This document shows, in pieces, positions 11,283 to 62,934 of a stretch of 64,000 nt of DNA. Position 1 is the stretch's first letter. Each line of letters opens with the position of its first letter. The translations under genes were made by a program, and so were the position numbers. Source of the stretch: Eledone cirrhosa. Taxonomy: Eukaryota. The notes beneath the pieces are model-generated. The model searched no databases and was not told the origin of the DNA. It was given only the letters and a program-made list of their open reading frames with translations. The stretch spans positions 231,942,001 through 232,006,000 of the forward strand of contig OZ024740.1 of assembly GCA_964016885.1 (NCBI GenBank). The letters are read 5' to 3'.

Positions 11283-13339
11283 TATGGCTCGCACGAGTTC
11301 ACATCTCGTCGATATCAAGAACTGATAGTAGCTGTCTTACTGCCACAAGCCTCGTCAATGGTCACTAATGCTGGCCGTCAACTGGCCGTCAACTGGCCGA
11401 CAGATTCGCAGAACATTCTCATGACATCCGGGTCGGCAACACGTCCTCGCTGGCATTCTAGTTGAAATATTTAGCTTCTTAGAATCATGGCGTACAACCT
11501 GGGACATACCGCTATACATTAAGTTTACATATTAAGACATTGCAAGGGAGCCTGAAGAACGGTGAAATGAAACCAAAGAACCAAGCAAAGTAATCAGAAT
11601 AAGGACAATCATATCAGGAATAACCAAACATATATATTTTGATATGTAATTAACAAAACTTTAGGAAAAAAGTTTATTTGGCATATTATCGCCGATCTAT
11701 GGTGTTTTCAAAGTAGATTTGTAGTTGTCGTTGACCACCTTGTATATAAAAGATATTGAGGACGACGACCTCCCATCAGTTCTTTCACTAATAATCCATT
11801 AAACACACAAACACACACATGCATACACACACACTCGCACACAATCACAGAAACACAAGCACGAACGTGCACAAATAAACATGTACATCAATCATACGCT
11901 TGACTAATTATATATATGTATATGTGTGTGTGTCTGTGTTTGTGTGTGTATGTATATATATATATATATATATATATATATATATATATATATATATGTA
12001 GGAGGTGAGTTTTATTGTAGTACAATAAAGCAATGCAGATATCGGATAAGAAGCACTCTACAGTTTGTAGGACTGGAGTATACATAATATATAAGAACAA
12101 ATATTATTGCATGATGATATTTGTTTTTGAAATGCGCATAATAAAATACATGGAACTCCTTTAACCATCTTTTGTTCTTATATATATATATATATATATA
12201 TATATATATATATATATATATTATAAATATATATATATATGCATATATATAATCCATGATATCGCATATTCTATGTGAGTGCAATCACCACTTTGCGTCA
12301 TATTTATTGTCTATTGTTATTTTATGTTCATATCCGATTGCATTTCCCGTTACAACACATTTCAATCAAATCAAAATTATACAAACTGCAGTATAATGGG
12401 GAAAATACATACATGACTGAATGAATGAATATATAATAAGAATAATAACATATATATAATAATAACATTTCTTTCTTTATTGGCCACTAGAGACATAAGC
12501 AGAAAAGATTTAAACACAACGGTAGGAGCATTCATTATACATAACACAAACAACTAGACATAAAATACACATATACATAATGTGTTCTGAATCTGTTGTC
12601 GCATTCAACGGTCAGCTTTCCAGTTCGCTTAACAAATCCACCTACTTATTGTATTACAGTGTAAAGTGGTGGATTCATAGAATTGTTGGACAAATGATTC
12701 ACAGAGTTGGACAAATGCTTTGCGGTATTTGTGGCTGCTCTTTACATTTTGTTTTCAAATCACATCGATATCAACTTTGCCTGTCATCCTTTTGTGCTCG
12801 ATGAAAGTACCAGTCAAATTCTGGTGTCGGTATATTCGACATCCTTCCCCCAAATTCCTAGCTTCAATTAAAAACCGTGTAATGTAACTGTATGAATATT
12901 CCTATCTTTCCCACCAGTTTCAGTGACACTCCTTTCCTCAGTAACATTCACCTTTCTCTCCAGTTTCCTGGCACCAACCTTTTATTTGATTCTTATTACA
13001 ACATACCTGTTCAGATAAAATCTTTTAAAATTCTTTATGCAATTTATCTACAGACCAAAAAATCCTTCTTTCCTAAAACTTGTACACTTAACGTAGTTCT
13101 GATATAGGCTTAGTATTATATTATAAACAATGGATATTTACACAATTTATGTCTACTGAATTTGGTTCTTAAGGCTTCAGGGGTCTGAAGTGCTACACTG
13201 TGAATGTAAATGGCCTTAACTATATGCTGCAAAGCATGGTGTCCGATTCTACTGCCAATCCACCACCCTTTTAGATGAATTAATAATAAGAACAATGTAA
13301 GCTATATACACGAATGCAAGATGATGTTCATCAGGCCTC

Positions 13340-13620
13340 AATTCTCGGTACCCTACAGTTTATTATAGGTAACTAGACCATAGCAGAGGTATTTACGGCT
13401 GGCTATTAATTGGAATTACTGTATGCGGATGTGCCAGTTTTGATAGCTGTAACTTATCGAAGAATTTGTGAGGTCCGACCGTAGAAGCAACAGCTACAAT
13501 CGAGTGGCCTTAAAGAAACCCTACCAAAGAAAAGGTGTTACTTAACATGAAAGAAGTTACGTCACCCTAACCATGTGGGAAGACGTTACACTCTAAAAGT
13601 AAAAAGGGATGTAGGATTAG
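13340..13620 (+). mobile_element. Degraded RTE-like RT fragment
   Basis: The sequence reads ..ELLYADVPVLIA.. near 13412-13450 (compare WELLYADDLVLIA). Confidence 0.4.
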
Positions 13621-13804
13621 TAGGACAAATGATAGACCGAGTGAGAAGGTAAACTTCGTATGTAGCAGATAAACAGGAACAGCTAGTAGTTTGAGGACCC
13701 GCGTGATAAATACTTTAAATTTCTAAAAGATTCCATTTGCATAATGCACGCGCATTTTTTTTTCCTTTTACATGTAAAGATCTTGTGAGATGAAACTCAT
13801 AGTA

Positions 13805-14427
13805 ATATCGTTTCCAATTTAGGCACAAAATTGACAATTTTGGAAAGAAGGCTAGATCGATTAAATTGACCTCAGTACTTGATTGGTACTTTAGTTTATC
13901 GGTCCTGGGTGTATGAAAGGCAAAGACAAATAGATATCAGCGGGATTTTGATCTCAGAACGCAAAGAGCAATCACAAACACTGCAACACATTTGCTTTAA
14001 CATTTCAGCGTCCTATAAAACACACAGTAATAATTCTTTCTAGCATTAACAAAAAACCAGTGAATATTCTGGAAGGAGAGAGTCGATAATATATAACCCA
14101 ATACTTGACTCCTACTTTATTTTATTGACCTTGGAAGGATGAAAGGTAAACTTGACCTCGGGAGCATTTGAACCCAGAATTGGAAATAGCGGAACAAAAC
14201 TGCAATGCATTTGCCCTAACATTTCTGCCAAACATCCACCATGTATAACAAACAATAATTGTTTCTACTTTTGGCACAAGGCCAGCAATTACCCAGTACA
14301 TTACTGGTACTTTATTTTATCGACCCCTTGAGGCAAAGTTAACCTCGGTGGGATTTGAACTCAGACCGTAAAGGGACGTATCTATGCTGGAAAGCATGGC
14401 GTCCGACTCTCTACCGATACTGCCAAT
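13805..14427 (-). mobile_element. Three tandem SINEs (family A, increasing conservation left to right)
   Basis: Repeated ggtacttt..ttat(c/t)gac..gatgaaagg.aaa..tttgaactcaga blocks start near 13810, 14035 and 14257. Confidence 0.7.
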
Positions 14428-15204
14428 AATGATGAAATCAATCAATAAAAAATGAAAGGCTGCATGTTAATGGAATCTTTTCTAAAGTAAACAGTAATCG
14501 TAAAAGAATATATAATGTCATTTGTATTGACTAATCAAGATAATTTTAAGTTACCTTAGTTAATGATGCATACATAGATATAATCGTAACGACATTGATG
14601 AAAAGACTAATCCGACTATTAATCTTTCCTGTATAAATATATATCTTCGTTCTATATCTCCATGCCTCAATGTCTTTTTCTCCCGCACACCTACCCCATT
14701 CAGCTCTTAATTTCTACATTGTTCTGCCCAAGTATGTTCACATTGTGGCTTAAAACACTGAAAGAATAATACGCCATGTGGTTTTGTACATATACACACA
14801 TACACACATACACACAAACACACACACACACACACACACACACACACACACACACACACACACACACACACACACACACACACACACACACACGCACACA
14901 CACATATATATATATGTATTTCCGTAGAATCGTCTAACTTCGTAAAACGTTGGGTAATTATATTATGTTGTTTATTACATAATTATATATATATATATAT
15001 ATATATATATATATATATATAACGAAGGAAATGTGGTAAGGAACCAGGTGGACCATAACGCACCAAAGTACTCAATACTTGAGGTAGTAGAGTGGGTAAT
15101 AGGAACCAGTAAGACCCTTACTGGTTCCTATATATATATATATATATATATATATATATATATATATATATATATATAAATATATATATATATATATATA
15201 TATA

Positions 15205-62236: not shown

Positions 62237-62514
62237 TGGAGGCACGTGGCCGAGGTGTAAGAGTGTTGGACTTACGATCATAATGTCGTGGGTTCGATTC
62301 CTGGGTTGTGTGTTGTGTTCTTGAGCAAAACACTTCATTTCACGTTGCTCCAGTATACTCAGCTGAAAATGAGTATGAGCAATAGCTGGAGGTTTAACCC
62401 TGCGATGGACTGGCGTCCTGTCCAGGGGGAGTTTTGTATTCTCAGTCGCTTCATGCCATGAAGCCGGGATAAGCACCTGCCAAATGAGCCTTCTGGCTTA
62501 AGACAGACTTTAGA
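62237..62514 (+). mobile_element. tRNA-derived SINE (family C) with CORE-like and V-like domains
   Basis: A-box TGGCCGAGGTG, B-box GGTTCGATTCC, CORE-like GTTGTGTTCTTGAGCAAAACACTT, V-like CCTGCGATGGACTGGCGTCCTGTCCAGGG. Confidence 0.8.
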
Positions 62515-62634
62515 CGTTTTTATATATATACATAGGAGTAGAGGTGCAAGATAATTACGTCCATAGGCGGTATACCGGGTGAGCACTTGATGCATATATA
62601 TATATATATATATATATATATATATATATAGAAG

Positions 62635-62687
62635 GAGCTTCTACAGGACTAGTACTGTTTCATTCAGATGAAATCTTCAGGAAGCTC
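62635..62687 (-). ncRNA. Type I hammerhead ribozyme (mirror copy at 62701-62747, +)
   Basis: Reverse complement: gagcttc-CTGAAGA-tttcatctgaat-GAAA-CAG tactagtc CTG-TA-gaagctc, with a perfect 7-bp stem I. Confidence 0.8.
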
Positions 62688-62934
62688 TGAAGATTTCATC
62701 CTGAAGATTTCATCTGAATGAAACAGTACTAGTCCTGTAGAAGATCCTTCTATAAAATAAAAAAATTTTACTCTGCCATGTATTGAGTACCTTACTTACT
62801 GTGGTTATCCCCGACTCAACCCGGGACCTACGTATATATATATATATATATATATATATATATATATATGCATCAAGTGCTCACTCTGTATACCGACTAC
62901 TGACGCGGTCAGTCTTTTACCTTCCATTATATTT

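Follow-up and report, generated by a model that had tools for sequence, protein, structure and literature searches.

Six short insertions lying between (TA)n tracts in the genome of Eledone cirrhosa raise the questions from which elements they derive and how their two unequal, opposed arms were put together. They are situated in a stretch of 64,000 nt, here called the window (GCA_964016885.1, contig OZ024740.1, positions 231,942,001-232,006,000, forward strand), where a first-pass annotation had proposed a separate, hammerhead- and Penelope (PLE)-linked insertion system. The insertions are labelled A (11997-12180), B (15021-15130), C (27729-28160), D (62631-62832), E (56418-56897) and F (59973-60800), and their families carry the same letters.

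Results

Insertions in the window

All six insertions are present between (TA)n tracts at these coordinates and a window self-BLAST gave zero mutual similarity among them, in agreement with their description as mostly unrelated. The description of all six as fold-backs holds for the four long ones (C, D, E and F), while A and B barely fold back. In the self-BLAST, C is 99% self-inverted (27769-28159), E and D form long fold-backs (56422-56799 and 62631-62750) and in F a fold-back (60559-60799) sits atop 2.4 tandem 310-nt units. The stem of B is only 12 bp (15102-15128), and A, an inverted tail fused to an 81-nt 3' end, has a stem of ~8 bp and a TA patch only. The reported asymmetry, one arm reading past the other, is present in all six and genome-wide; the longer-reaching end is referred to as tailed and the other as tail-less.

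On sequence evidence, five of the six are short ends of PLEs with RT and GIY-YIG parents in the genome, four Hydra-type (A, B, D, E) and one Neptune-type (C), and the sixth (F) is a retrozyme-like array of 310-nt units. As elements, they are new but ordinary families of types already known. The following features were identified:

11997..12102, minus strand: family A tailed arm, very short, inverted tail (~96 nt) and 9 nt of element end
12098..12178, plus strand: tail-less arm of family A, the final 81 nt of a Hydra-type PLE with the 3' hammerhead half only; 91% identity to 43849-43928 in the self-BLAST
15021..15113, minus strand: family B tailed arm, 80-nt tail and 12 nt of element end
15117..15128, plus strand: family B tail-less arm, 12 nt, without hammerhead core in the window copy
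27729..27964, minus strand: family C tailed arm, 33-40-nt tail and ~196 nt, Neptune-type end without hammerhead
27965..28159, plus strand: family C tail-less arm, beginning at the inner-end pile-up of the family (-197 to -199)
40921..43929, plus strand: broken, 5'-truncated PLE of family A, containing pieces of RT and GIY-YIG, a 40-nt piece of inverted tail (40922-40961) and a complete hammerhead (43837-43891)
56418..56580, minus strand: tail-less arm of family E, inner boundary approximate, in which a minimal type I hammerhead is complete (core at 56520; cut predicted near 56476)
56581..56897, plus strand: family E tailed arm, inner boundary approximate, element end to 56781, ATTTT patch and ~95-nt tail
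59973..60715, minus strand: tail-less arm of family F, 2.4 copies of the retrozyme-like 310-nt unit with complete hammerheads at 60132 and 60442
60714..60800, plus strand: family F tailed arm, 52 nt and a ~35-nt tail
62631..62692, minus strand: tail-less arm of family D, containing a complete type I hammerhead whose core is at 62680 and whose cut is predicted near 62642
62693..62832, plus strand: family D, short templated duplication at the junction, tailed arm to 62750 and 82-nt tail

A symmetric palindrome is also found in the window, at 62933-63241.

Parent elements and family assignment

The PLE origin suggested earlier was borne out by the finding of parents with RT and GIY-YIG, read by motif. 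The parents of A (L435) and B (L439) are single ORFs of 808 aa and 786 aa, respectively, and that of C (L191) is a 4.8-kb unit with RT and GIY-YIG spread over three frames. Family E is represented by a broken Hydra-type ORF (L440) and D by pieces, Hydra-type RT and EN, in L261 and L296; no intact parent was identified for D or E and no autonomous partner for F. A 784-aa ORF in L290 belongs to another family nested between two D ends. When the seven PLE pieces of the window were run against Pfam, one gave a sub-threshold RVT_1 match and none matched GIY-YIG.

Families A, B, D and E share with Hydra clade PLEs (Craig 2021) a C-terminal EN, RW[K/R/I], DKT, a CxCX5C linker, CxxC and CxH, the (TA)n target and a predicted pLTR hammerhead. 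All four motifs (RWK-type, DKT, CxCX5C, and CxxC with CxH) are present in A and B, whereas in E these are DKT, CxCX5C and RWK and in D the EN end only, with CxxC and CxH. The usual Hydra clade unit is <3 kb and those found here are 3.1-4.3 kb, the hammerhead core is degenerate in B, and the assignment was made by motifs rather than by a tree. The C parent matches Neptune-type PLEs in GxKF, DKG, a CX2-5CxxC linker before a C-terminal GIY-YIG and a 33-40-nt tail, but differs from them by the absence of a hammerhead in two full-length copies; a linker motif occurs in Nematis as well and this assignment too is motif-based.

Family F consists of non-coding 310-nt tandem units with one type I hammerhead each, and its arms hold up to eight near-identical units in a row. 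With metazoan non-LTR retrozymes (Cervera and de la Pena 2020, PMC7229834; Li 2026, 10.64898/2026.07.22.740005) it shares the tandem unit, the type I hammerhead in each unit and the occurrence at many loci. Unlike described retrozymes, its arrays are head-to-head with a PLE-style tail at one end (15/15); in a word search of Li 2026 (10.64898/2026.07.22.740005) neither "tail" nor "head-to-head" occurs. Tail-less F arms end 0-23 nt beyond a whole number of units in 5 of 16 cases against ~1.2 expected, a post hoc observation that gives no more than a hint.

The proposal of a separate, new system did not hold, since PLEs have already been described with an inverted copy, a one-sided tail and (TA)n targeting (Craig 2021, PMC8557442; Arkhipova 2013, PMC3846280; Schostak 2008, PMC2377424), and an inverted 5'-truncated copy with a one-end tail is what was found here. 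The tails of C (33-40 nt) and F (31-43 nt) are near the 30-40 bp published for complex EN+ PLE insertions, whereas the four Hydra-type families have tails of 80-96 nt (A ~96, B 80, D 82 and E ~95 nt). A TIR DNA transposon or MITE was ruled out, with asymmetric ends in 136/138 insertions and spans from ~50 nt to 5.8 kb. Loci picked by similarity had suggested that C is a fixed non-autonomous palindrome copied whole; this was rejected by a positional sample, where the span was 389-395 nt in 5/32 copies and 147-5853 nt in the others, with differing centres.

Hammerhead motifs

The first-pass annotation had counted about 15 hammerheads in the window, a number that was reduced to seven complete type I motifs (stem I at least 5 bp) or eight (at least 4 bp), with shuffle means of 0.07-0.1; allowing one core mismatch gave 11 motifs versus 1.0 in shuffles. 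No hammerhead family appeared among the 150 listed of 179 Rfam matches in the window, the listed ones being microRNA-type hairpins below gathering score. That most insertions carry a hammerhead or half of one is correct for D, E and F (complete) and A (3' half) but not for B and C, which are without the core. In the pLTRs of the Hydra-type families the motif is complete in A, D and E and has two core mismatches in B, self-cleavage being a prediction. When folded, the hammerhead-like shape had z = -2.6 in E, -3.3 in A and about -1.2 in D and F, and the best fold of D differs from the active hammerhead fold.

Outer ends and their pairing

Tabulating arm end points showed two modes in every family, i.e. 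two registers. Of the 138 two-ended insertions that could be classified, 136 combine one tailed with one tail-less arm (A 25/26, B 14/14, C 31/32, D 32/32, E 19/19, F 15/15), with four more left unclassified; against a binomial of 0.5, the ceiling under independent choice, p = 2.8e-38. All positional samples were drawn from contig C1, and the exceptions in them are one tail/tail copy (L426) and one with no tail (L186) whose arms are 98% alike; three further tail/tail copies (L006, L024, L071) were seen among similarity-picked loci. Among the first 100 B matches listed, typed by the two letters after the end, the pairing was found in 37/37 pairs. A fixed letter at -9, tried as a means of separating tailed from tail-less A arms, is present in 0 of the first 100 matches listed. 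One-ended insertions are common (C 28/60; D 28 ends versus 35 pairs). The suggested genome-wide scale agrees with exact arm counts of 788-15,726 per family, and pair rates among the first 100 C1 matches listed, scaled to exact-match totals, lead us to infer some ten thousand such inverted repeats in the genome.

Partial tandems that give a pLTR occur in A, B, C and E, with the tail reading on into the next copy at that copy's 5' end; among 60 loci there was no tandem copy of D. Beyond the tail, tandem copies of A, B, C and E lead into 5' UTR and ORF and those of F into the next unit, which makes both end points internal RNA sites. The tail-less ends are situated in TA-rich patches, scattering across 0-31 nt in D, and are not a clean template prefix in 24/47 (D) and 12/25 (E), as slippage at initiation would produce; many of these carry repeated A- or ATTTT-rich units, and some are plain substitutions.

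(TA)4 follows nearly all Hydra-type ends, with 1-3 misses per family in 40-95 ends, the background being ~5-10% per 20 nt. The view of (TA)n as a pre-existing target gained support from three clear empty paralogous sites that hold (TA)n; of 120 insertions searched, 10 had candidate empty sites, three convincing by eye and seven uninformative.

Arm lengths, shared variants and centres

In 75 insertions of A, C and E the tail-less arm was longer in 21, the tailed arm in 23 and the two were about equal in 31. A longer tail-less arm cannot have been copied from the tailed arm, and the reverse likewise. In every one of the six families, both arms have minor variants in common 4-9 times as often as permuted pairs do; per 100 columns, observed versus permuted rates were 2.49 and 0.58 (A), 0.52 and 0.12 (B), 1.11 and 0.20 (C), 0.37 and 0.04 (D), 0.90 and 0.11 (E) and 0.26 and 0.06 (F), the observed rate being reached in 0-7 of 1000 permutations. 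Such variants fit one RNA molecule, one source locus or later conversion between arms alike. Median arm identity was 99.0% (120 pairs).

Spacers between the arms are <30 nt in 60/138 pairs and 300 nt to 5 kb in 40. As a check on the assembly, the centres were seen to vary from copy to copy and the flanks are not mirrored. Two short-read contigs (X1, records 2 and 3) cross a family D centre with at least 31 letters on each side, and none of the contigs listed spans a whole item. Shared variants, either arm being longer and variable centres together indicate that most insertions were joined anew, contrary to simple fold-back.

Inner ends

The inner ends pile up, the densest 9-nt bin containing 28/69 in A, 18/35 in B, 20/77 in C, 50/79 in D and 17/46 in E, with 0.9-2.6 expected under uniformity. 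Counted from the element end, the pile-ups are located at -162 (A), -62 (B, the upper bound being taken and not the mode, -58), -198 (C), -56 (D) and -205 (E), and every one is a pyrimidine-C|A step. A TATA-like word is situated 25-32 nt upstream in B, C and D and none was found in A and E. One-ended C and D copies halt at the pile-up too, directly abutting TA repeats. An apparent class of A caps that end 8-9 nt beyond the inner site was due to a query favouring whole caps, and among the 26 positional pairs only one is of this kind.

Directly before the pile-up A, a G was found in 13/36 stopping arms of A, D and E versus 16/144 neighbouring letters (p = 7.5e-4, in a test conceived post hoc on a small sample), and the templated C is kept in 15/36; in C the result was negative, with 3/3 keeping the C. 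In L1, an extra G is a mark of copied caps, and the C|A site with an untemplated G is likely to be a capped RNA start. In A, C, D and E the pile-ups coincide with palindromes of 4-8 nt, at which joining would be favoured even if no RNA ended there.

Discussion

Probable mechanism of insertion

Parents, two-moded ends, one-tail pairing, shared variants, variable centres and inner pile-ups can all be read directly from the DNA, and the reading that we prefer, with a probability of roughly 0.6, is that the insertions are truncated PLE and retrozyme-like copies in pre-existing (TA)n, made by coupled twin priming at two fixed RNA sites. In vitro, GIY-YIG nicks both strands, the tail is delimited by two start sites and a dimer is predicted (Frangieh 2024, PMC11167929). 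Both nicked target strands would start reverse transcription on RNA from one source, one protomer priming in the UA-rich patch that immediately follows the pLTR on its 3' side and its partner at the distal tail end, and both cDNAs would proceed 5'-ward along uncleaved RNA. Many may run off at the capped 5' end within the pLTR, which would give the short palindromes, and longer arms may derive from RNA that reads through tandem copies or from a jump between templates; the two 3' ends would then be linked by host end-joining, via short microhomologies or small insertions. The hammerhead would be a pLTR passenger during this step. Two-ended priming, as first proposed, is supported by the two registers and the one-tail pairing, and the head-to-head joining of two independently copied arms by pairing, shared variants and arm lengths.

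It is unlikely that both arms are made tailed and that one then loses its tail through an EN cut in the internal TA-rich patch during resolution. Craig 2021 (PMC8557442) attributes the tail to EN-mediated resolution, the TA-rich patches at tail-less ends are a likely EN substrate and one tail per insertion is predicted here too. Both tail boundaries were however mapped as RT start sites (Frangieh 2024, PMC11167929), and the repeated, untemplated A- and ATTTT-rich units at tail-less ends and the 0-31 nt scatter in D argue against cutting.

Two RNAs, one for each protomer in a complex with built-in asymmetry, would spare the strand displacement that double copying of one RNA stretch requires; the tailed arm is the longer in 23/75, and arm-to-arm differences in D are not below the permuted rate (830 of 1000). 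The likeness of the arms would then stem from few active loci or later conversion. Set against the shared minor variants of all six families and the high median arm identity, this is quite unlikely.

The ribozyme-processed template of the first-pass annotation, a linear or circular RNA (see also Cervera and de la Pena 2014), is very unlikely. Complete hammerheads in A, D, E and F and a degenerate one in B speak for it, F arms with up to eight units would suit a circle, and a ligated circle leaves no end at the cut site. Arm ends nevertheless avoid the predicted cut, with 1/73 (A), 1/56 (E), 1/40 (B) and 0/94 (D) within 2 nt of it, counts that for B and D are partly blind by design. Family C has the same geometry without a hammerhead, the pile-ups lie upstream of or within the motif at promoter-like positions, and cleavage is unnecessary in vitro, where cleavage mutants insert normally (Frangieh 2024, PMC11167929).

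Self-priming of one cDNA or antisense RNA that folds back, proposed from junction palindromes (Arkhipova 2013, PMC3846280), agrees with the short palindromes at pile-ups, the 60 short spacers and the shared variants. A longer tail-less arm in 21/75 and 40 spacers of 300 nt to 5 kb mean that neither arm was copied from the other, so that fold-back is contradicted for asymmetric cases and is highly improbable. Survivor or assembly bias, or palindromes as assembly artefacts, is hardly credible: symmetric copies beside self-complementary (TA)n would be the most cruciform-prone, but the pairing holds in 38/40 insertions with spacers of at least 300 nt, symmetric palindromes are retained (L024; window 62933-63241), centres vary, flanks are unmirrored and X1 contigs traverse a D-type centre.

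Comparison with known systems and implications

In L1 twin priming, the inverted part is a different, upstream stretch. Unlike L1, both arms here copy one pLTR stretch, probably from two fixed start sites. A trait that would be common to both is that the two target ends prime on RNA and that the cDNAs are end-joined to give an inversion (passages in PMC11702581). With PAc Poseidon in vitro (Frangieh 2024, PMC11167929) the insertions would share nicking and extension on two strands, two internal start sites that bound the tail and dispensable cleavage. In that system no strand difference in start-site use and no RNA-target homology were seen; in the genomic copies, by contrast, the types of the two ends are anti-correlated and a TA-rich patch forms the inner site. 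Compared with published complex EN+ PLE insertions, the one-end tail is near-absolute among two-ended copies (136/138).

The origin of PLE inverted repeats and tails is described as an open question (Craig 2021, PMC8557442; Frangieh 2024, PMC11167929), the published picture being qualitative and the in vitro assay having read strands separately (Frangieh 2024, PMC11167929). The one-tail rule in 138 genomic events, together with either arm being longer, contradicts simple fold-back and independent priming, and lets a sharp prediction be made for single molecules in the in vitro system already available. We put forward tentatively, at somewhat short of even odds, that PLE integration is obligatorily asymmetric, with one RT dimer on one capped, uncleaved RNA allotting a different start site to each nicked target strand, and that this holds for retrozyme arrays too. 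If true, a single rule would account for tail, inverted repeat and short palindromes (through run-off to the cap) in both PLE types, and retrozyme arrays would be shown, by footprint, to move with PLE enzymes, for which the F arrays appear to be footprint evidence. The inverted repeats, spread genome-wide, are a possible source of double-stranded RNA.

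The six insertions and their families

Six short insertions placed between (TA)n tracts by the first-pass annotation were confirmed at the positions below, and a self-BLAST of the window revealed no similarity among them, in line with its description of them as mostly unrelated.

Insertions, each naming a family, with parent elements (L-numbers are loci taken from the assembly)
A, 11997-12178: parent L435, 3.7-kb unit, 808 aa, RT with C-terminal GIY-YIG, Hydra-clade motifs according to Craig 2021
B, 15021-15128: parent L439, 3.1 kb, 786 aa, RT with C-terminal GIY-YIG, Hydra-clade motifs according to Craig 2021
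C, 27729-28159: parent L191, 4.8 kb, Neptune-type (GxKF, DKG, CX2-5CxxC linker)
D, 62631-62832: arms continue into Hydra-type RT and endonuclease (EN) pieces
E, 56418-56897: parent L440, 4.3 kb, broken copy of A/B (Hydra) type
F, 59973-60800: non-coding 310-nt tandem unit, one hammerhead per unit
40921-43929: broken family A copy

The reading of the items as fold-backs holds for C, D, E and F, where the stems are long, but the stem of B is just 12 bp and that of A only ~8 bp. Exact element-end patterns occur 7,281 (A), 15,726 (B), 8,438 (C), 2,600 (D), 788 (E) and 1,273 (F) times in the 3.0-Gb genome, totals that count arms and not insertions. In tandem copies the extra stretch read by one arm corresponds to the beginning of the 5' region of the next copy downstream, which identifies it as the known tail of Penelope-like elements (PLEs). 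Craig 2021 (PMC8557442) describes PLE insertions with an inverted 5' copy and a tail of 30-40 bp, in many cases confined to one end, as well as Hydra elements that carry hammerheads and insert in (TA)n, and the A-F items share the inverted copy, the one-end tail and the (TA)n site. The proposed separate insertion system was therefore not borne out; the geometry is the known PLE insertion footprint and A-F are new families of a kind already known.

A motif scan revealed 7-8 complete type I hammerheads in the window versus 0.07-0.1 in 30 shuffles, and 11 versus 1.0 when one core mismatch was allowed, indicating that the enrichment is real, although the suggested figure of about 15 is reached only by counting half motifs. 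Complete motifs are found in D, E and F and a 3' half in A, but no core in B or C; two full-length family C copies likewise gave no hammerhead. Complete hammerhead-like motifs also lie outside the six items at 17202-17267 (+) and, possibly by chance, within a Helitron-like region at 35221-35256 (+).

A check for assembly artefacts showed the flanks to be unmirrored and the centres specific to each locus. Contigs (not raw reads) of the short-read run X1, which may not derive from the assembled individual, cross a D-type centre, and loose ends in (TA)n at the inner site of C were found in X1 (38 contigs) and in the runs X4 and X11.

Pairing of tailed and tail-less arms

Initial searches chose copies by similarity and were biased, and pairing was instead counted in copies taken by position on one contig (C1). 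Family C was represented by the first 60 of 67 clusters, from the first 100 matches, and D by 60 of 77 positional clusters, with 6.5 kb of upstream sequence included for single matches of both; for A, B, E and F the sample consisted of the initial 30 loci per family, supplemented with inverted pairs from the listings whose selection ignored tail type. These were all 14 pairs in A, 11 additional ones in E (L440 among them) and 9 additional arrays in F, where three arrays further down the listing were left out.

End points fall into two classes in each family, one in a TA-rich patch just past the element's terminus and the other a full tail length beyond, the tail being about 96 nt in A, 80 in B, 40 including the patch in C, 82 in D and 31-43 in F; in E they lie at 109-119 (tailed) versus about 20 (tail-less). 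Among two-ended insertions the pairing rule is near-absolute: one tailed and one tail-less arm were found in 136 of the 138 classifiable cases (142 distinct insertions; p = 2.8e-38 against 0.5, the highest share of mixed pairs possible under independent choice), the exceptions being L426 and L186. All 37 pairs among the B matches listed follow it. Three tail/tail copies, one with mirrored flanks, occurred among similarity-picked loci, and one-ended copies are frequent. A search of the open literature revealed no statement of the pairing rule or of a retrozyme tail; subscription papers or supplements may contain one.

Templating of the arms

Minor variants are common to both arms at 4-9 times the permuted-pair rate in all six families, and differences between arms are below the permuted level in five (D is not lower), which would fit both arms deriving from one source; later conversion between arms is a possible origin of the shared variants. 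Centres vary from copy to copy, often with small templated or untemplated insertions. When arm reach was compared in A, C and E (n = 75, a few E values being blurred by internal repeats), the tail-less arm was longer in 21 cases, the tailed arm in 23 and the two about equal in 31. A longer tail-less arm could not be copied from the tailed arm, nor a tail from a tail-less arm, so each arm had a template of its own. Self-priming fold-back, as set out in Arkhipova 2013 (PMC3846280), is argued against for the cases with a longer tail-less arm, in which neither arm can be copied from its partner. The pairing rule is not accounted for by perfect palindromes having been lost, since 38 of 40 insertions with at least 300 nt separating the inverted repeats obey it.

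The two end-point classes and the separately templated arms support the earlier suggestion of two-ended priming at two registers. Tail-less ends often lack a clean template prefix (24/47 in D, 12/25 in E), which would suit initiation slippage better than a cut. Empty copies of repeated host units hold (TA)n at the sites of three insertions.

Inner end points

Counted from the element end, the inner ends form pile-ups at -162/-163 in A, -43 to -62 in B, -197/-199 in C, -55/-56 in D and -205 in E, with 13-25 times uniform density. A ribozyme-processed RNA template, as first suggested, was not supported, 0-1 arm per family ending at the predicted hammerhead cut in a test partly blind for B and D. 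Each of these pile-up sites is a pyrimidine-C|A step. In B, C and D, but not in A or E, it is preceded at a distance of 25-32 nt by a TATA-like word; both features were judged against the consensus for such sites. Four sites double as short palindromes. A G just precedes the pile-up A in 13/36 arms of families A, D and E versus 16/144 nearby letters, a count devised after the data were seen and leaving out junctions explained by the partner arm; family C showed no such G. An extra G is described as a mark of the copied cap in L1 (PMC11702581), and the Penelope promoter has been located in the terminal repeat, or pLTR (Schostak 2008, PMC2377424). The pile-ups are thus likely cap run-off ends at an RNA start inside the pLTR, which would account for the fold adjoining the hammerhead in D.

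Other features of the window and sampled loci

Further features
3541-6209, 11174-11279, 12707-14428, 16551-16913, 29420-29924, 52008-52127, 62925-63286: SINE-like repeat of ~190 nt (labelled by appearance only), abundant and often tandem
15784-16185, 57110-57430: palindromes with a microsatellite at the centre, tail-to-tail, opposite to the arrangement of the six items
19393-25422 (+): stop-to-stop frame, 2009 codons, resembling a single-exon leucine-rich-repeat membrane protein (labelled by reading the sequence)
31929-36954 (-): Helitron-like element, broken, with Pfam matches to a PIF1 helicase (E = 1.7e-56) and to STPR repeats (E = 1.9e-28)
46080-51053: second PLE, Neptune-type, with RT pieces, CX2-5CxxC and GIY-YIG
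62236-63782: nested inverted structure surrounding item D, made up of 62236-62515 versus 63502-63782 (91%), 62558-62593 versus 62870-62905, and a symmetric palindrome at 62933-63241 with a short TA tract at its centre

The second PLE, at 46080-51053, contains a 1.36-kb inverted duplication (46361-47712 versus 49694-51053, 99%) and an inverted piece within RT; its end adjoins TA tracts at many sampled loci. A further family of Hydra type (L290:1261-3612), which has a pLTR of its own and an intact frame of 784 aa, is nested between two family D ends. In L409, a family F insertion lies in a family C copy, within its 3' region, where the Neptune-type element has TA tracts that are targeted by other elements seeking (TA)n. 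In the flanks of L004, L027, L068, L136 and L181 more unrelated short head-to-head families occupy common TA tracts as direct neighbours, and the geometry therefore extends to at least several additional families.

Relation to the PLE mechanism

Frangieh 2024 (PMC11167929) describes extension of both target strands and a tail bounded by two start sites, and predicts a dimer, with the strands alike in start site and cleavage unneeded. To this picture the present data add the near-absolute pairing of tailed with tail-less arms, the arguments against fold-back, a likely cap run-off and, on the retrozyme-like array of family F, a PLE footprint; taken together, these make the question of the PLE mechanism directly testable.
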